Assembly (NCBI GenBank): GCA_028877195.1
Contig: JAPPIL010000181.1
Span: forward strand, 1 to 13,691
DNA length: 13,691 bases
Direction of reading: 5' to 3'
Source: Pseudomonadota bacterium
GTDB lineage: Bacteria; Bdellovibrionota_B; Oligoflexia; Oligoflexales; JAPPIL01
The translations under genes and the position numbers were made by a program. Below the pieces are notes generated by a model. That model searched no databases, was not told where the DNA came from, and was given only the letters and a program-made list of their open reading frames with translations. This document shows positions 465 through 7,551 of the stretch, piece after piece (the first letter of the stretch is position 1; each line of letters begins with the position of its first letter).

Positions 465-577
465 AAATGTTTATTTTGGCATAGTCGCAAATATCCAGCT
501 GCCCAGCTTAAATTTAAAAGAAGGGTCGATGATAAAAACTAAATGTTTATTTCAGCAAGGTCGCAAATCTGCGGTGG
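465..577. repeat. Imperfect 29-bp direct repeat (TAAATGTTTATTTyrGCAwrGTCGCAAAT), two copies 73 bp apart. The second copy (540-568) is the last 9 codons plus stop of the ATPase gene. The first copy (467-495) lies just downstream of it.
   Basis: Direct comparison of 467-505 with 540-577 shows about 25 of 29 identical positions, after which the two sequences diverge. Confidence 0.5.
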
Positions 578-1399
578 ATCGCCGCGCTGAAGGATAAGGG
601 CATGCACCGAATCGCCGAGCATTTCTGGTTGAAATGAACTCGTGTATAAGGACAGCAGAAACCTTATCCTTGCCTGCACTTGGCGGCTCGATTCGGCATG
701 TAGGGTTGTTAACAAGCCGAGATGACCAATGGTCATAGCTTTGACAAAGGCGATAATTTCTTGCCCACGGATTTCTCCGATAACGAAACGATCGGGGCGC
801 AGACGCAATATTTCTTCAATCAACACTTCCATACTTGTATCACCCTGTGTTTGGCAACGCATCCACAGCGATGACATAAGCGGCAACTCAACGATAGATT
901 CAAGAATTGCCAGCCGCTCCTGTTGACACACTGCACGCAGTAGCGAAGCGAGAAAGGTTGTCTTGCCACTAGACGTTGAGCCGCAGACCAGCAAAGGTTT
1001 GTAGCCACGCACATGTGTCAGACAGTCGTCGCAAAGATTGTGCGGGTCGTTAAAATCAGCTAAGGTCAAGGCAGTAAACTCGTGTCGTCGCAGCGACACT
1101 ACTGCGCCATCGATTGCCACAGGTGGAATCAGGCAGTGCCAACGGACGTTATGTTCGTGTAGATAGCCACCACTGTATGGTTTGAGCGGGTCAAGGCGAA
1201 CTCCTTGCGAGAAGGAAAAATCCTGTAGCCAATGCACCATCTCCTGTTCGTTGGCGAAGATGGAGGGCAGGACTTTGCGTTTACCAGCAGTGTAGACGAC
1301 AACTGAACGGGTGCTGTTAATTAAAACTTCGTCAGTCGTGCGATCGGAGAAAAAGCGGTCGATGATGTCAGTAATATCAGCGCTGCTAATTGCGGAACC
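539..1399 (-). CDS. CpaF/TadA/VirB11-family (type II/IV secretion-type) ATPase, unusually small (about 287 aa if the whole open frame is used). The first ATG is at 1240, but the conserved N-terminal region is encoded upstream of it, out to 1399, with no canonical start codon.
   Basis: Walker A is GSTSSGKTT. The Walker B/His-box region is RPDRFVIGEIRGQE...TIGHLGLLTTLHAES. The Asp-box-like region is RLAILESIVEL. The upstream in-frame segment ...TDEVLINSTRSVVVYTAGKRKVLPSIFANEQEM matches the CpaF N-domain pattern (I.vNG...v.vER.GK...V...F.DE..L). The frame stays open to 1399 and contains only ATT/ATC/CTG as possible starts. Confidence 0.65.
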   Translation of the reverse strand, partial: GSAISSADITDIIDRFFSDRTTDEVLINSTRSVVVYTAGKRKVLPSIFANEQEMVHWLQDFSFSQGVRLDPLKPYSGGYLHEHNVRWHCLIPPVAIDGAVVSLRRHEFTALTLADFNDPHNLCDDCLTHVRGYKPLLVCGSTSSGKTTFLASLLRAVCQQERLAILESIVELPLMSSLWMRCQTQGDTSMEVLIEEILRLRPDRFVIGEIRGQEIIAFVKAMTIGHLGLLTTLHAESSRQVQARIRFLLSLYTSSFQPEMLGDSVHALILQRGDPPQICDLAEINI

Positions 1400-1802
1400 C
1401 TACTTTACCGCCACGCTTAACCGACGAGAGAATATCTTCGCGTGGCACGAGGTCAGTAGGGAGTTCCGCTCGCCGTAGGTTAGCACGGTAGAAGGTTGCC
1501 CCACGCAATTTCGCATAATCAAGGTCAGCTTCCTCAAGGTTGGCTCTGGTGAAGTCAGCGCCTTCAAGGTTCGCATTCCACAGCGATGCCCCTGACAAGT
1601 CGGCTTTGAAAAAATTAGCATCCTTGAGATTTGCGTAGGAAAAGTTCGCAAACTGAAGATTACAACCAGAGAAGTCTACCCGCGTAAGATTAGCGCGCCG
1701 CATATCCGTGTTGGATAGATCACTAGTTGAACCCAGTTTCTCAAGCACTTCCTTGCGGTTCAAAGATGCTACTGTTGAATTATTAAGACTCCCCCGTCCC
1801 AT
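1386..1802 (-). CDS. Pentapeptide-repeat protein (about 138 aa from the ATG at 1802; the track ORF extends to 1874).
   Basis: The C-terminal two thirds consist of A(N/D)LxxA(N/D)F-type pentapeptide repeats (ANLTRVDFSGCNLQFANFSYANLKDANFFKADLSGASLWNANLEGADFTRANLEEADLDYAKLRGATFYRANLRRAEL). The internal ATG at 1800-1802 is preceded by AGAGGT with 8-nt spacing. The stop at 1386-1388 overlaps the open frame of the downstream ATPase. Confidence 0.7.
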   Translation of the reverse strand: MGRGSLNNSTVASLNRKEVLEKLGSTSDLSNTDMRRANLTRVDFSGCNLQFANFSYANLKDANFFKADLSGASLWNANLEGADFTRANLEEADLDYAKLRGATFYRANLRRAELPTDLVPREDILSSVKRGGKVGFRN

Positions 1803-1934
1803 ACTCTTACCTCTGAAAAGAGCATCGTATAGAGGTAGCACAAAGGCCTGCTGTCCGCAATCTCTTTGTCTCAAACAAGAGCTTGTATTAGAAGGAGGTT
1901 AGCGGTTAAATAGTAGCAAGGTTAACGGGTTATC

Positions 1935-2983: not shown

Positions 2984-4363
2984 CTATGCGACAGTGCGTT
3001 TCGTGCGGCAGAGGAACATAGCAAGCAACAGTAGCAGTGCGATGAGCGGGTATTTGAGGAGCATAACCATCGCTAACGGCAAGAGTAGCAACGCTTGCGC
3101 CAACACTTTCAACAGCGCATTACTACTGATGTGTGTCGCTAACGCAGGGGAATGCTCGTAGTATAGGGCAACGAGCTTGCGCCCGCTAGCGTAGGGCAAC
3201 AAGAAACGATCGCGAAACCAGCGCAACTGTTTAACGATAACTGCATCTGACCCATAGGCAGCGGTGGCGATAAAACAATGGAGGTCATGCCGTTTAGCTT
3301 CACCCAAATCGTTGAGTTCCAACAGTGTTTTGTTTTCAATCGCCGCAGCCTCCATGCACACACTGCGAGCGATGCCGTCAGGGTAATGCTGTAGCATAAT
3401 CTGATAGACGACACCAGGCTTGAGGTCAGGTATTGAATCGCTACGTCCCGATAGCAGGGTTGAATTCGACAAGGCAGGAATCTTGCCAACCTCATCATAA
3501 GCAAGATAAACATTAGGTGTTGGGCAAGAGATGCTACAGTCTGGCAACCATTGACATTCAGCATCAGCTGGCAAGTCGGTATCCCCACCAGCAGCGACAG
3601 GTCTGAATACTTTGGCAATCGAGACAAGCGACACGGGTTCGGTGCTTTTCGCCAGCACATAGGCAACGACCCCACGCACAGGCTGTTTGCCCTGCGAGTT
3701 TGTGAATTCAACGACATTCTCCCGCTGCATTTCAACCTGCAAACGATGATGTAAAGCCGTTACCCCCGTTAACTTCGGCGCAACACTAGGGACACCATCA
3801 ATGCGAATGAACTCATGCGTTATCGCTGCCAACAGCCCACCATAAGAATCTACCCCCCAGACACGATACGCAATTCTAACCTTAAGCTTACCGCTATCAT
3901 CATAGAGAGCATTTAAGTTATCCTCGTAAGCCCTAATCGCAATCTCATAATAAACCGTCGTATTGCCATTGATATTAGGCTCTTCCTCCACCTCGCGATC
4001 GACAGGCACAAAGTAGTAGTCTCGATGGTGGCTAACATTTGGCGTTGAGTCCTGTTCATTCGCATGTTCTCTCGCCTGCACTGGCGATTCATAATGCGGC
4101 AATGGTAATTCACGACTGTCGGCATCACTGTCAGGCAACGTTACCCATAACCTTGCCCAGATATTTTCCTCGCCATCCTTGAGGGCAACATCACTCGGTA
4201 GGATGTCATCAATCGTGAAGCGAACCGTCAGTTGCCTAGTATCCTGCTGACGAGGCAAGCTGACATCGCTAACGCTAATCTTAATATCGGCGTATACTTG
4301 AAGAGAGAAAAGCGCGGTGGCAAGGCTTGGCAACAGTCGGTTAAATGGTAATCTCCAATCCAT
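2984..4363 (-). CDS. Secreted or surface protein, 459 aa. It has a cleavable N-terminal signal peptide (cleavage after ...LQVYA) and a C-terminal tripartite sorting-signal-like domain: CFIATAAYGS motif (3248..3277), a conserved LRWFRDRFLL...YY..SP segment, a hydrophobic helix and the basic tail CRTKRTVA.
   Basis: The N-terminus MDWRLPFNRLLPSLATALFSLQVYA-DIK is a typical Sec signal. The C-terminus CFIATAAYGSDAVIVKQLRWFRDRFLLPYASGRKLVALYYEHSPALATHI...YPLIALLLLLAMFLCRTKRTVA matches the architecture I recall for CFI-box-type C-terminal putative sorting domains. The central about 330 aa are acidic, with a Cys cluster (AECQWLPDCSISCPTP), and have no family I recognise. Confidence 0.7.
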   Translation of the reverse strand: MDWRLPFNRLLPSLATALFSLQVYADIKISVSDVSLPRQQDTRQLTVRFTIDDILPSDVALKDGEENIWARLWVTLPDSDADSRELPLPHYESPVQAREHANEQDSTPNVSHHRDYYFVPVDREVEEEPNINGNTTVYYEIAIRAYEDNLNALYDDSGKLKVRIAYRVWGVDSYGGLLAAITHEFIRIDGVPSVAPKLTGVTALHHRLQVEMQRENVVEFTNSQGKQPVRGVVAYVLAKSTEPVSLVSIAKVFRPVAAGGDTDLPADAECQWLPDCSISCPTPNVYLAYDEVGKIPALSNSTLLSGRSDSIPDLKPGVVYQIMLQHYPDGIARSVCMEAAAIENKTLLELNDLGEAKRHDLHCFIATAAYGSDAVIVKQLRWFRDRFLLPYASGRKLVALYYEHSPALATHISSNALLKVLAQALLLLPLAMVMLLKYPLIALLLLLAMFLCRTKRTVA

Positions 4364-5276
4364 CGTAACCAGCTAATACTCGCAAAGAAGAGTTATGTCC
4401 ATTGCTAGCCGCAATTTTATCAGCATAGGTAACCGCATCCTCACATTTGCGATGAATATCGCTGTCAACAGCATCAGGTGAATGATGCACCAGCACTATG
4501 TTAGAGATATTCTCACGGAACGCAAGATCAATACCACGCGCAGGGCTGGAATGTCCCCAATCATAGTGTTTCTCTAATTCGTGCGGTTCATAGTGGCTGT
4601 CAAAGATGAGATAATCAAGGTTTTGATAGCAGACCAAGTCCTTCCCCAATTCTTCGGGGGTGCTGCGATCGAGTTTAGTGTCTAATGCCACTGCCACCGA
4701 CTTGCCATCGACATCAAAGCGATAGCCGTAGGCATGCCCAGGATGATCAAGTGTAAATGGAGTTATCGCCACGCCATCCACCTCTACTAGGGTGCGGGTG
4801 GCAAGCTGATGAAAGTTTATCTCTGCTTCAATATTTTGCCATAGCACGGGGAAGTTTATGCCATTGAAGAGCAGTTCCAGATGCTTGGCGGCGTAGCTAT
4901 GGACATGATAAATATCCACCACCGAACCATGCTCATACAAGGGTGAGAAAAAGGGCAAGCCGATGACATGATCCCAATGCAGGTGCGTTAAGAAAACCTT
5001 ATGATGCCTAGACCTCTCGCCAATTTGACGGCCGTAGTCCACCAACCCAGTGCCGAGATCAATGATAAAACTACCGCTATTGTGCTTGATTTCAATACAA
5101 GTGGTATTGCCACCATAGGTAAGTGGTCTTGCCAGCCCCTTGAGGGTCGCACGCAGTTTATCGGTATCGTTGGTTAGCTGCTCGTTTTGTGCAAGACCAA
5201 CCAACATTTCAACTAAAGAGTCATGTGATACTGAACGTGGGCTTGAGCCGCGTGTGCCCCAGAATTTTAACTTCAT
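4341..5276 (-). CDS. MBL-fold metallo-hydrolase (metallo-beta-lactamase superfamily, PhnP/RNase Z-like subgroup), 311 aa.
   Basis: The zinc-binding signature HLHWDH (HxHxDH) is present. The N-terminal MKLKFWGTRGSSP is typical of this subgroup. Further His/Asp ligands sit at DHPGHAYGY and VLVHHSPD. The 3' end overlaps the start of the next gene by 23 nt. Confidence 0.75.
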   Translation of the reverse strand: MKLKFWGTRGSSPRSVSHDSLVEMLVGLAQNEQLTNDTDKLRATLKGLARPLTYGGNTTCIEIKHNSGSFIIDLGTGLVDYGRQIGERSRHHKVFLTHLHWDHVIGLPFFSPLYEHGSVVDIYHVHSYAAKHLELLFNGINFPVLWQNIEAEINFHQLATRTLVEVDGVAITPFTLDHPGHAYGYRFDVDGKSVAVALDTKLDRSTPEELGKDLVCYQNLDYLIFDSHYEPHELEKHYDWGHSSPARGIDLAFRENISNIVLVHHSPDAVDSDIHRKCEDAVTYADKIAASNGHNSSLRVLAGYDGLEITI

Positions 5277-5332: not shown

Positions 5333-6286
5333 CTAAAAAAGCTGATGTTTGCCGAGACTCAAGATAAATTTCTTCGGATTGGTGGGACGACCGTTGACCC
5401 AAACCTCATAATGAAGATGAGCACCAGTTGATCGCCCTGTTGAGCCAACAGTGGCTATTTGGTCGCCGCGAGCAATTCTTTGCCCTACAACAACTAGGTT
5501 GTGAGCGTTATGTCCGTAACGCGTTACTACTCCATGCCCATGTGCAATCATAATGAAATTGCCGAAGCCTTCTTTTGTGCCTGAAAAAATTACCACTCCA
5601 TCTGCAGGGGCATAGATGGGTTTACCTACCGATGTCGCAATGTCAATGCCATAGTGTTTCTGGCGCTTGCCCGTGAACGGTGAGGTGCGATAACCAAACC
5701 CACTGCTTACCCAGCCATCAACTGGCGAAATCGCAGGGATAGACGATAACAGCGAGCGTTTCTTGCCTAATCGTGATAGGAGGCGCTGCATATCAAAAAT
5801 ATTTTGATGCGCACTATTCTCGATTTCAGTCAGTTTGCTGAAGAGATCGCTATGCACCATATCGCTAATCTTAACACCGTCAAAAATCGCACTGCTGTCA
5901 AGCGTAGCGCTCTTTTTGAACTCTTCATACTCGTCTTCGGTCAATGCCCCAATGCCAAGATGCTTTCTGGCTTTTTTGTTATTCAAGTGCATCAAATCAT
6001 TAAGCTGATCGGTGTAGCTCCCAACCACCCGTAAACTTTGCTTGACTTCACCAAGTCTCTCATTCAAAATCCGCACCTCGGCCTGCAGACTGTGGTGCTC
6101 GACTTTTAGTTTGCTAAACCCCCTGACCTCATCATGCATCTTGATATAGTCAAGTGCGAAAAAGACCGCAGCAAACAGCACCGCCAAACCCAACAGCGCC
6201 GCAAGCCTAAGCACCAACTGCGGCATCGCGAACGACCGCGTCATATCCGTTCCGTCTGGTATCAACACTAGCGTAATTTTCTTCAA
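5333..6286 (-). CDS. Membrane-anchored M23-family (LytM-domain) metallo-endopeptidase with an intact catalytic site, 317 aa.
   Basis: The N-terminal TM helix is LVLRLAALLGLAVLFAAVFFAL. It is followed by a coiled-coil-like charged region. The C-terminal M23 domain has HxxxD (HYGIDIA) and HxH (AHLHYEV) zinc ligands plus a G-rich core GFGNFIMIAHGHGVVTRYGHN. The TTG start at 6286 has AGGAAT 9 nt upstream. Confidence 0.8.
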   Translation of the reverse strand: MKKITLVLIPDGTDMTRSFAMPQLVLRLAALLGLAVLFAAVFFALDYIKMHDEVRGFSKLKVEHHSLQAEVRILNERLGEVKQSLRVVGSYTDQLNDLMHLNNKKARKHLGIGALTEDEYEEFKKSATLDSSAIFDGVKISDMVHSDLFSKLTEIENSAHQNIFDMQRLLSRLGKKRSLLSSIPAISPVDGWVSSGFGYRTSPFTGKRQKHYGIDIATSVGKPIYAPADGVVIFSGTKEGFGNFIMIAHGHGVVTRYGHNAHNLVVVGQRIARGDQIATVGSTGRSTGAHLHYEVWVNGRPTNPKKFILSLGKHQLF

Positions 6287-6289
6287 GGA

Positions 6290-6420
6290 TTAGATTCCTA
6301 ATTAAAATTAAATTTCTAATTAAATTTCTAATTAAATTTCTAATTAAATTTCTAATTAAAGTTCTAATTAAAGTTCTAATTAAAGTTCTAATTAAAGTTC
6401 TAATTAAAGTTCTAAATCAT
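6290..6420. repeat. AT-rich 12-bp tandem repeat array. Three copies of TTCTAATTAAAT (6314-6349) are followed by five copies of TTCTAATTAAAG (6350-6409), with degenerate copies flanking both sides. It abuts the M23 peptidase start codon.
   Basis: Direct reading shows a perfect 12-nt periodicity over about 96 bp and decaying copies at each end. It is located at -4 to about -135 relative to the M23 peptidase start at 6286. Confidence 0.9.
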
Positions 6421-6427
6421 GTGGTTT

Positions 6428-6733
6428 AATAAAAATTACTTGCCATATACGACCACACAGAGGGACTGTTTGTCGCAGGGGGAAGTATCCCCCGTGCACC
6501 CCCTCCTTAAAAAACTTGCTGATTTTATCGTTGCTCATAAGCATAAATCTACTTGTCTTAAAAATTACCTGCCACATACAACCACACAGAGGGACTGTTT
6601 GTCGCAGGGGGAAGTATCCCCCGTGCACCCCTCCTTAAAAAACTTGCTGATTTTATTGTTGCTCATAAACATAAATCTACTTGTCTTAAAAATTACTTGC
6701 CATATACGACTACACAGAGGCTGCCTATCCTTC
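6428..6733. repeat. Tandem direct repeat of a 129/128-bp unit, 2 full copies plus a roughly 35-bp partial third copy. Each unit contains a GC-rich stem-loop GCAGGGGGAAGTATCCCCCGTGC (first copy 6475..6497).
   Basis: The unit start AAAAATTAC occurs at 6431, 6560 and 6688. The copies are more than 95% identical, with a few substitutions and a 1-bp deletion in copy 2. An inner 5-bp G/C stem has a 6-nt loop and is flanked by the complementary GAGGG...CCCTC. Confidence 0.85.
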
Positions 6734-6783
6734 CTGTGTCTTCCTCGGCAAGCATGCCGAAAACATAAGTAAACTATGCTTTG

Positions 6784-7551
6784 CTATTTGGCTGCAACCA
6801 CAACGATAGTGATATTATCCTTTCCGTCTCGCTCATTAGCAAGGTCAACCAAACTTTCGACTGCTTTGAGTCTCTCCTTGCTCACACATAGAGAAATCTC
6901 TGCATCGCTAATCATGCCATGCAATCCATCTGATGATAAAACATACATATCACCAACCTCAACCCCAACGACGTGAGTATCAACATCTTCCTCCTCTTGG
7001 CAACCGACACTACGAGTTATGATGTTGCTAGCGACAGCCTTGTCCTCCCCGCTATGGGACTCTTTCCCGTGCCGCTGTTGATATTCATTAGCAAGGGAGT
7101 GGTCATTGGTAAGTTGATAAATAAAACGACTACGCACCAGATACACCCGACTGTCGCCAACATGGGCGATATATGCCTTGCTATTGATGAACAGTAGCAA
7201 CGACACGGTCGTTCCCATGCCGCTCAACTTTGGTTCTTCCAATGCCCGCTCGTAGATTTTGGTCGAAGCGAGGTTAACCGCAGTGCGGAGAATTTCAAAT
7301 ACATGCCCATCGATGCTTGTGCCGATGATTTTGTCTTTGCCAAGTTGACGTATTCTGTCAACGACATAGCCAGACACTATTTCAACGCACATACTACTCG
7401 CTACTTCACCGCCAGCATGACCACCCATGCCATCAGCTACGATGTAAAGCCGAGTGTTGCCGTCGATGAGGTAGGTGTCTTGATTGGAGTTTCTAACTTG
7501 ACCTATATCGGTCAGACCTCTCGCATCTATACGCATCAGTTGCTTGATCAA
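6784..7551 (-). CDS. PP2C-family Ser/Thr protein phosphatase (Stp1/PrpC-like), 255 aa.
   Basis: PP2C motifs appear in order: LTDIGQVRNSNQD, ADGMGGHAGGEVAS, SGMGTT, VGDSRVYL, SSDGL and DNITIVVV. Confidence 0.8.
   Translation of the reverse strand: MIKQLMRIDARGLTDIGQVRNSNQDTYLIDGNTRLYIVADGMGGHAGGEVASSMCVEIVSGYVVDRIRQLGKDKIIGTSIDGHVFEILRTAVNLASTKIYERALEEPKLSGMGTTVSLLLFINSKAYIAHVGDSRVYLVRSRFIYQLTNDHSLANEYQQRHGKESHSGEDKAVASNIITRSVGCQEEEDVDTHVVGVEVGDMYVLSSDGLHGMISDAEISLCVSKERLKAVESLVDLANERDGKDNITIVVVAAK

Follow-up and report, generated by a model that had tools for sequence, protein, structure and literature searches.

How does a perfect tandem array of 12-bp units come to lie directly in front of the gene for a cell-wall hydrolase, and does it matter for the expression of that gene? 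The question is posed by a stretch of 13,691 nucleotides (contig JAPPIL010000181.1 of assembly GCA_028877195.1, Pseudomonadota bacterium), which we refer to as the window. The array directly precedes the gene for an M23 family peptidoglycan metallopeptidase of 317 amino acids with a MepM/ShyA-like M23 domain (5333–6286 on the minus strand, start codon TTG; Pfam PF01551, E=2.4e-34), and this M23 gene is the one immediately downstream. The host probably represents an uncultured, marine, Oligoflexia-like and predator-like lineage that is associated with sponges.

The original prediction for this locus regarded the array as a possible phase-variable or architectural promoter on strongly curved DNA or, alternatively, as an iteron-like row of binding sites. 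We favour a plainer reading, to which we assign a probability of about 0.6: slippage in a transcribed spacer generated a minisatellite (variable-number tandem repeat, VNTR) that is young, restricted to this lineage, probably variable and probably of little regulatory consequence. According to this reading, the array would have begun when strand slippage duplicated 12 bases surrounding the ribosome-binding site of M23; a single T/G point mutation and local duplications after it would then have produced the two homogeneous blocks. Most likely, transcription would turn the array into an AU-rich part of a leader or intercistronic RNA, and it would have no role as promoter DNA; it would comprise at least nine copies, a number that is probably unstable, and its effect on M23 expression would probably be small. 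The observations that follow show directly that the array exists, how it is built, where it stands relative to the Shine-Dalgarno sequence and the start codon, and that it is missing from relatives, and they reveal neither predicted curvature nor canonical promoter or terminator motifs; from them we infer the slippage origin, the transcription through the array, the instability and the near-neutrality.

Structure and origin of the array

Tandem Repeats Finder (TRF) places a 12-bp tandem array at 6306–6415 (period 12, 9.2 copies, 98% matches, score 192), and direct reading gives nine perfect, AT-rich copies at 6306–6413. By sequence reading and TRF alike, these copies fall into two blocks. The T-type block (6306–6353) consists of four perfect copies of AATTAAATTTCT, which on the minus, mRNA-sense strand reads AGAAATTTAATT; the G-type block (6354–6415) consists of five perfect copies of AATTAAAGTTCT (6354–6413) and two nucleotides (AA) of another copy. 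Period 12 is uninterrupted over 6306–6360 (55 bp) and over 6350–6415 (66 bp).

Chance origin of this cluster is excluded. When up to two mismatches are allowed, the 12-mer pattern matches 12 times in the window, against an expectation of 2.9, and none of 200 shuffles reaches 12; the exact matches number nine and are all clustered in the array. Besides the array, the 13.7-kb window contains no run of period 12 that extends over 24 bp or more.

The array does not end with its last perfect copy on the M23 side. There it is followed by a degenerate copy (6294–6305, minus strand), ATTCCTAATTAA, which agrees with the unit at 11 of 12 positions by sequence reading. On the minus strand this copy is TTAATTAGGAAT, compared with TTAATTAGAAAT for the T-type unit, so that the sole difference is an A-to-G change, and that change creates the Shine-Dalgarno (SD) sequence AGGAA (6299–6295, minus strand). 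An extra half unit, AATTAA, follows the degenerate copy. Because the SD-bearing terminal copy is identical to the unit at 11 of 12 positions, we take the array to have originated from local sequence. Furthermore, since the ribosome-binding site sits in the terminal repeat copy, slippage could duplicate or delete the SD itself.

The original prediction was right that the array exists and that it abuts the M23 start: nine perfect copies are present, and only 7 nt separate the array, with its imperfect end, from the start codon. The extent it gave, from −4 to about −135, was close and needs a small correction, given that the gene lies on the minus strand with its TTG at 6286. The perfect array extends from −20 to −129 and, with the degenerate copy and the half unit, reaches −8.

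The start codon used for this numbering agrees with the relatives of the gene. The TTG at 6286 matches GTG or ATG in the relatives' DNA and is followed by the same residues, KK(V/I)TLVLIPDGT. There are more than 5,000 M23 homologues at E≤1e-20, and those of the same length (317 amino acids) cover 100% of the query; the names among them include Oligoflexus, Oligoflexales and Pseudobacteriovorax, and the source protein itself carries the label ‘MAG: Pseudomonadota bacterium’ (MAG, metagenome-assembled genome). An in-frame TAA at 6292–6290 stands two codons before the start, and the array therefore lies outside the M23 open reading frame (ORF). The distance from AGGAA to the TTG is 8 nt; in relatives, SD-like sequences (GGA or GAGG) occur 4–5 nt ahead of the start codons. 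At 6287–6298 a weak inverted repeat, AGGA...TCCT, with a stem of 4 bp and a loop of 6 nt, would pair the SD with bases up to and including the first base of the TTG, and it is seen in predicted folds.

The spacer in related genomes

Upstream of M23 lies its conserved neighbour, a Stp1-like PP2C Ser/Thr phosphatase gene (6784–7536, minus strand), and the whole PP2C–M23 spacer measures 497 bp (6287–6783, minus strand). In the mRNA sense this spacer is made up of about 110 nt that can be aligned with relatives, a set of 128-bp repeats, the 12-bp array and the SD. The 128-bp tandem repeat, which the original prediction had missed, comprises 2.3 copies at 93% identity (6430–6720, TRF) and directly adjoins the array on its upstream side. 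Its copies, of 128 and 129 bp, differ by a 1-bp indel (GGGGG versus GGGG), and each copy carries the hairpin GGGGGA-AGTA-TCCCCC.

We compared this spacer with the orthologous loci of relatives. The spacer is 2 bp long in L016 (M23 identity 55%), 54 bp in L005 (62%) and 179 bp in L002/L003 (84%), and in L004 (84%) at least 109 bp of non-repetitive DNA lie upstream of M23; the adjacency of PP2C and M23 is seen in L002, L005 and L016. The array is absent from the orthologous position in L002/L003, L004, L005 and L016, and TRF finds nothing similar to it in L002 and L005. The first 110 nt or so after the PP2C stop codon do align with relatives, and the alignable part reaches into the 128-bp unit, while the array has no counterpart. 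Since the 128-bp unit aligns with the relatives' ancestral spacer, the 128-bp repeat is, as judged from these alignments, a local duplication of ancestral PP2C–M23 sequence. The spacer thus appears to have grown by two local events, the 128-bp duplication and the 12-bp expansion.

The relative age of these two events can also be gauged. That the two sub-blocks point to recent expansion is a suggestion of the original prediction that our comparison supports: both blocks are perfectly homogeneous, and the neighbouring 128-bp duplication is already 7% diverged. Therefore, the 12-mer array is either younger than the 128-bp duplication or continuously homogenised.

Several other accounts of the spacer were considered and set aside. 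A coding function was rejected: a minus-strand ORF of 46/74 amino acids (6404–6628) and a plus-strand ORF of 117 amino acids (6419–6772) traverse the 128- and 129-bp copies in different frames, and neither has a Pfam match. Because the homologous spacer is only 2–54 bp long in some relatives, it holds no conserved gene. A mobile element, such as a miniature inverted-repeat transposable element or a repetitive extragenic palindrome, was likewise rejected, as 6200–6800 is free of inverted repeats and the window contains no other copy of the array. Neither plasmids nor phages gave a BLAST match to the 128-bp repeat region (6416–6790, array excluded), and viral contigs gave none to a core of 25 bases from the 128-bp repeat. 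Nor is there an Rfam match, either in the whole window at gathering thresholds or in 6200–6850 at E≤1, and the RNA of the 128-nt unit folds no better than shuffles (z about −1).

A 15-nt motif, TTTAYTTATGTTTTC, stands directly after the PP2C stop codon at about 6763–6777 of the window (minus strand), at about 5832–5846 of L002 and at about 36–50 of L004. The window shares it with both relatives whose M23 is 84% identical, while the spacer around it is not conserved, and it does not fit a promoter or terminator consensus.

The 12-mer in other genomes

The unit is rare elsewhere, and one of its other occurrences bears on the stability of such arrays. Among 185,579 species-representative genomes (GTDB), a set that does not include the source MAG, the unit dimer occurs once, in a Colwellia MAG (L008), where 3.7 copies of the 12-mer lie in intergenic DNA at 5690–5735. 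The dimer also occurs in six metagenome contigs of the Joint Genome Institute (JGI), in unrelated and mostly very AT-rich contexts. Two of these JGI contigs, L010 (978–1013) and L011 (1991–2014), represent the same locus with three and two copies, respectively, of the identical 12-mer; arrays of this 12-mer therefore change their copy number in nature. Two further contigs, L009 (about 80–300) and L013, are AT-rich and ORF-poor and contain longer, degenerate arrays with both the T and the G variants. We treat the recurrence of the 12-mer as convergence of low-complexity, AT-rich sequence and not as a family.

Probable transcription through the array and its expected effect

If the array is to be understood, it is important to ask whether it is read as DNA or as RNA. 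On the minus strand of 6287–6783, neither a sigma-70-like site nor an intrinsic terminator is predicted at the tool's threshold, with promoter scans that use an E. coli-type consensus and may not fit the phylum of this bacterium. With only 7 nt between the array and the start codon, any M23 promoter must lie inside or upstream of the array. No promoter fits below the array, nothing is predicted to terminate PP2C transcription, and the gene pair is operon-like in relatives, so that the array is most likely transcribed; it is most likely leader or intercistronic RNA.

What such transcription would mean for M23 was modelled in silico by varying the number of copies. The predicted accessibility of the SD is flat, at 0.38–0.45, from 1 to 40 copies, and masking of the SD by the array was rejected because this accessibility is independent of copy number. 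Since the SD is predicted to be equally accessible at any copy number, a small effect on M23 is probable.

Some considerations weigh against the minisatellite reading. That the array is unstable, transcribed and neutral is something that we infer throughout. The E. coli-type promoter consensus may be unsuited to this phylum. Within every unit, a quasi-palindrome of 10 bp, TCTAATTAAA, surrounds a perfect TAATTA core and could be a protein site. Finally, the predicted folding of the sense-strand RNA, which is better than that of shuffles, could hint at a role at the RNA level.

A possible hairpin in the leader RNA

The last of these points leads to the first alternative, in which the array acts as an element of the 5' untranslated region (UTR). 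In Haemophilus influenzae, the hmw1A transcript includes the heptamer repeat, which folds into a hairpin in the 5' UTR and is cut by RNase III (PMC12721329). By analogy, the self-complementary units UUUAAUUAGA could form an AU-rich hairpin that scales with copy number, and an RNase III-type double-strand RNase or mRNA stability could then set the level of M23 expression, resulting in graded phase variation.

Beyond that precedent, folding predictions speak for such an element. The sense-strand RNA of the array is predicted to form one long interrupted hairpin of −27.8 kcal/mol (z=−3.6), and none of 200 shuffles folds as well; this hairpin arises because UUUAAUUAGA is self-complementary by way of two G-U pairs. 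Only RNA, and only that of the sense strand, shows this effect: the antisense array RNA has z=−1.9, and the two single-stranded DNAs are unremarkable (z=−0.6 and −1.0). Moreover, over 0–40 copies the modelled minimum free energy of the whole leader becomes about 3.3 kcal/mol more negative with each unit added, and if any upstream promoter drives M23, then the array is necessarily in the leader. (Hairpins of single-stranded DNA as a driver of slippage were rejected, the DNA of either strand folding no better than shuffles.)

Other features of the locus speak against this element, however. The helices contain only AU and GU pairs and allow many alternative registers, and when the full 521-nt spacer is folded, the centroid structure leaves the array without stable pairing. 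Copy number, as described above, leaves the accessibility of the SD unaffected, relatives do not share the array, and M23 is a housekeeping-like gene. On balance, we consider an hmw1A-like element unlikely. The more specific proposal, that a slippage-tuned leader hairpin would exert graded, heritable control over the M23, MBL-fold and CFI-box-CTERM genes as a functional, copy-number-variable RNA element, seems to us a little more doubtful still. If it were true, it would extend an hmw1A-like mechanism beyond the classical pathogens, through a 12-nt unit that also spawned the M23 Shine-Dalgarno sequence.

Possible promoter activity and DNA curvature

The second alternative is that slippage alters the geometry or the upstream architecture of a promoter and thereby switches M23 on and off. 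Perfect repeats are prone to slippage, and the array, which covers −8 to −129, is the most AT-rich part of the window (GC 0.30–0.34 in 300-bp windows). A weak combination, TAGAAA-N18-TTTAAT, is present in each T-type unit. Nothing in the array passes the scan, however. The −10-like hexamers that it offers (TTTAAT, TCTAAT and TAGAAA) lack the near-invariant A2 or lack T6, and the best of them, TTTAAT, is without A2. Even a permissive promoter scan of the spacer yields best matches of only 8–9 of 12 positions; it also reports a weak TAGATT-N18-TAAAAT in each 128-bp unit, at 6551–6522 and 6679–6650. In addition, gain or loss of 12 bp restores the same spacing of hexamers within the array, so the geometry of a core promoter would be unchanged, and PP2C and M23 are probably co-transcribed, given that 2 and 54 bp separate them in relatives.

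It has also been proposed that phased A-tracts make this DNA strongly curved. We assessed curvature with the wedge models of Bolshoy-Trifonov and De Santis, both of which work with dinucleotide parameters. The ratio of end-to-end distance to contour length is 0.95 and 0.98 for the array region (127 bp), compared with 0.94 and 0.96 for mononucleotide shuffles of the array, 0.97 for M23 coding DNA, and 0.29 and 0.36 for a positive control of phased A6 tracts. Among 679 windows scored over the 13.7 kb, the array region ranks from 139th to 241st. The twist per 12-bp unit is 408–413 degrees in the Bolshoy-Trifonov model and 425–426 degrees in the De Santis model; successive bends are thus rotated 48–66 degrees out of phase and cancel, so no unusual curvature is expected. 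Phased A-tract curvature was therefore rejected, the period being 12 and not 10–11 bp and the predicted curvature being no higher than background.

Two claims of the original prediction find no support in this evidence. Strong curvature is predicted by neither wedge model, and the period is out of helical phase, as the prediction's own figure of about 50 degrees per copy implies; a promoter array is not borne out by a spacer that joins a conserved PP2C–M23 pair, with no terminator in between and no sigma-70-like site at the threshold of the tool. We regard a phase-variable or architectural promoter as very unlikely.

Possible binding sites for a protein

The third alternative takes the array to be a set of protein-binding sites, as in an iteron, a centromere-like locus or a cooperative repressor array, with one quasi-palindrome and its TAATTA core per unit. 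The regular spacing and the palindromic core of each unit are what such a reading would lead one to expect. It also has a parallel in the tubC-like centromeres of partition systems, in which direct repeats, arranged in blocks, precede the operon and also cover its promoter (PMC6009700).

The surroundings of the array argue otherwise. Among the ORFs scanned in the window, no Rep, ParR, TubR or other DNA-binding gene is recognised; the neighbours are PP2C, M23, MBL-fold and ccm genes. The context is chromosomal, and the locus is syntenic with relatives that lack the array, with ccm genes nearby. The rarity of the unit dimer reported above (one of 185,579 species genomes and six JGI metagenome contigs) comes without a common gene context. 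A replication origin or DNA-unwinding element was also rejected: the cumulative GC skew falls near-monotonically, with no inflection at 6300, and the flanking genes all share one strand. The iteron or binding-site array of the original prediction thus finds no recognised replication, partition or DNA-binding gene among the neighbours scanned, no conservation in relatives, and a motif that is nearly absent elsewhere, and we hold it to be highly improbable.

Copy number in the assembly

Because tandem repeats are difficult to assemble from short reads, we consider what the nine copies represent. By default, the largest k employed by metaSPAdes is 55. The window derives from a short-read metagenome scaffold (ENA, ERZ23495530, ROBB21-1_SAMN13943214_METAG-scaffold_5347, 13.9 kb). 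Record names of this kind (ROBB21-1, NGUY21-1, TARA_..._METAG-scaffold) fit the pipeline of the Reef Microbiomics Database, in which each metagenome is assembled with metaSPAdes v3.14/3.15 (PMC13083261).

In a simulated de Bruijn graph with k=55, the shortest path contains exactly 4+5 units for any array of at least four T-type and at least five G-type units. The assembled numbers, four and five, are precisely these saturation values. Since the assembled 4+5 coincides with saturation at k=55 and the scaffold naming matches the metaSPAdes pipeline, nine copies is a lower bound; as a rough estimate, the chance that the assembly understates the true number is about even. The 128-bp repeat can be resolved at k=55, by contrast, because the longest exact match between its copies is only 51 bp. 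The locus is thus a clean example of a metaSPAdes repeat copy number at exact k=55 saturation, a number that should be given no biological reading without a check of the reads.

An independent assembly at k=31 (Logan, SRR10996926) matches over the approximately 200 nt read, which begin at the 3' part of PP2C and reach into the first 128-bp copy, and its contig breaks inside that copy, before the array. Look-ups of the exact M23, PP2C and MBL-fold proteins return the source scaffold and one Logan contig only, so that the array is present in one assembly. It is nonetheless hardly credible that the array is an artefact and does not exist: such a suspicion could draw on the metagenomic scaffold and its pipeline-like name, on periodic stretches of 55 and 66 bp that a k=55 graph would output for any longer array, on the only other assembly of the sample breaking short of the array, and on the seemingly low coverage of an organism whose other genes are not recovered in the Logan assembly, but tandem repeats are collapsed and not created by de Bruijn assembly, the conserved PP2C–M23 synteny shows that the join is correct biologically, single 150-nt reads can span an array of 110 bp, and the doubt touches the copy number alone and not the existence of the array.

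Neighbouring genes

Nearly all genes of the window, including those that flank the array, lie on the minus strand. In the order of that strand they encode an aldehyde dehydrogenase, an ADK-like protein, a PLP decarboxylase, an SPFH protein, CcmE, an AhpC/TSA-like redoxin and PP2C, followed after the spacer by M23, an MBL-fold protein (4341–5276, minus strand) and a CFI-box-CTERM protein of 459 amino acids (2984–4363, minus strand). The window contains no genes for transfer RNA or transfer-messenger RNA.

The original prediction had treated M23, the MBL-fold gene and the last gene as a module with cargo. This module does not hold together as a conserved unit, as the MBL-fold and 459-aa genes do not adjoin M23 on its downstream side in any of the four relatives (4/4). 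By this comparison, the two genes seem to be an insertion, specific to the lineage, on the downstream side of M23. They overlap by 23 bp, and PADLOC gives no match for either protein. The MBL-fold hydrolase bears a weak likeness to RNase Z and to a cyclic-nucleotide phosphodiesterase, along with a weak Pfam match to Anti-Pycsar Apyc1.

Farther along, an ORF of 233 amino acids (539–1240, minus strand) corresponds to no more than the central part of the type II/IV secretion ATPase family (positions 103–276 of the 370 in the T2SSE profile), and it may be a truncated gene. It adjoins a pentapeptide-repeat protein of 162 amino acids (1386–1874, minus strand).

Comparison with known systems

The array looks like an ordinary intergenic minisatellite, and features of this kind are well known. 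The vrrA locus of Bacillus anthracis, for example, is a VNTR with a 12-bp repeat. As in the intergenic VNTRs and minisatellites used for bacterial typing by multiple-locus VNTR analysis, the units here are perfect or nearly identical, head to tail and at least 10 bp long, they form internal variant blocks, and they are absent from the orthologous position in relatives; moreover, the same 12-mer is polymorphic elsewhere (L010 versus L011). What sets this array apart is that its terminal copy supplies the ribosome-binding site of the downstream gene, and that polymorphism is known only at another locus.

Among contingency loci with simple-sequence repeats in their promoters are nadA of Neisseria, which is preceded by a TAAA tract, and loci whose repeats lie between −35 and −10 elements. 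The present array resembles them in being an AT-rich repeat upstream of a gene, within the promoter or 5'-UTR region (−8 to −129 of M23), in a bacterium whose association with a host is suggested by the record name alone. It differs from them in that its unit, at 12 bp, exceeds the typical 1–9 bp and is non-coding, in that gain or loss of a unit keeps the spacing of hexamers within the array, in that no promoter is identified, and apparently in the class of gene: M23, as the conserved partner of a Stp1-like PP2C, would not seem to be of the surface, host-interaction or restriction-modification type that is typical of contingency loci, and the MBL-fold and CFI-box-CTERM genes downstream are lineage-specific. 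Should copy number nevertheless vary and affect expression, then repeat-driven phase variation would extend to an uncultured lineage and to a cell-wall hydrolase.

The likeness to phased A-tract DNA is limited to AT-richness and short runs of A or T; the twist of 408–426 degrees per unit and the background level of predicted curvature are different. With the parC and tubC types of iteron or centromere array (PMC6009700) the locus shares short blocks of direct repeats directly upstream of an operon. It differs from these in being chromosomal and not conserved, in having no recognised gene for a cognate binding protein nearby, and in that its two blocks are contiguous and not split around a promoter.

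Finally, the (ATCTTTC)n repeats of H. influenzae hmw1A and hmw2A are similar to the array in that both separate the start codon from whatever promoter may drive the gene, and in that both are placed, here by prediction, in a long hairpin of the sense-strand leader. Their unit, however, is 7 bp long and not 12, and their hairpin pairs the repeat with a G-rich arm, whereas the AU-rich units of the array would pair with themselves. The array, moreover, is predicted to leave SD accessibility flat. The hmw gene encodes an adhesin, and the M23 gene a conserved peptidoglycan hydrolase.

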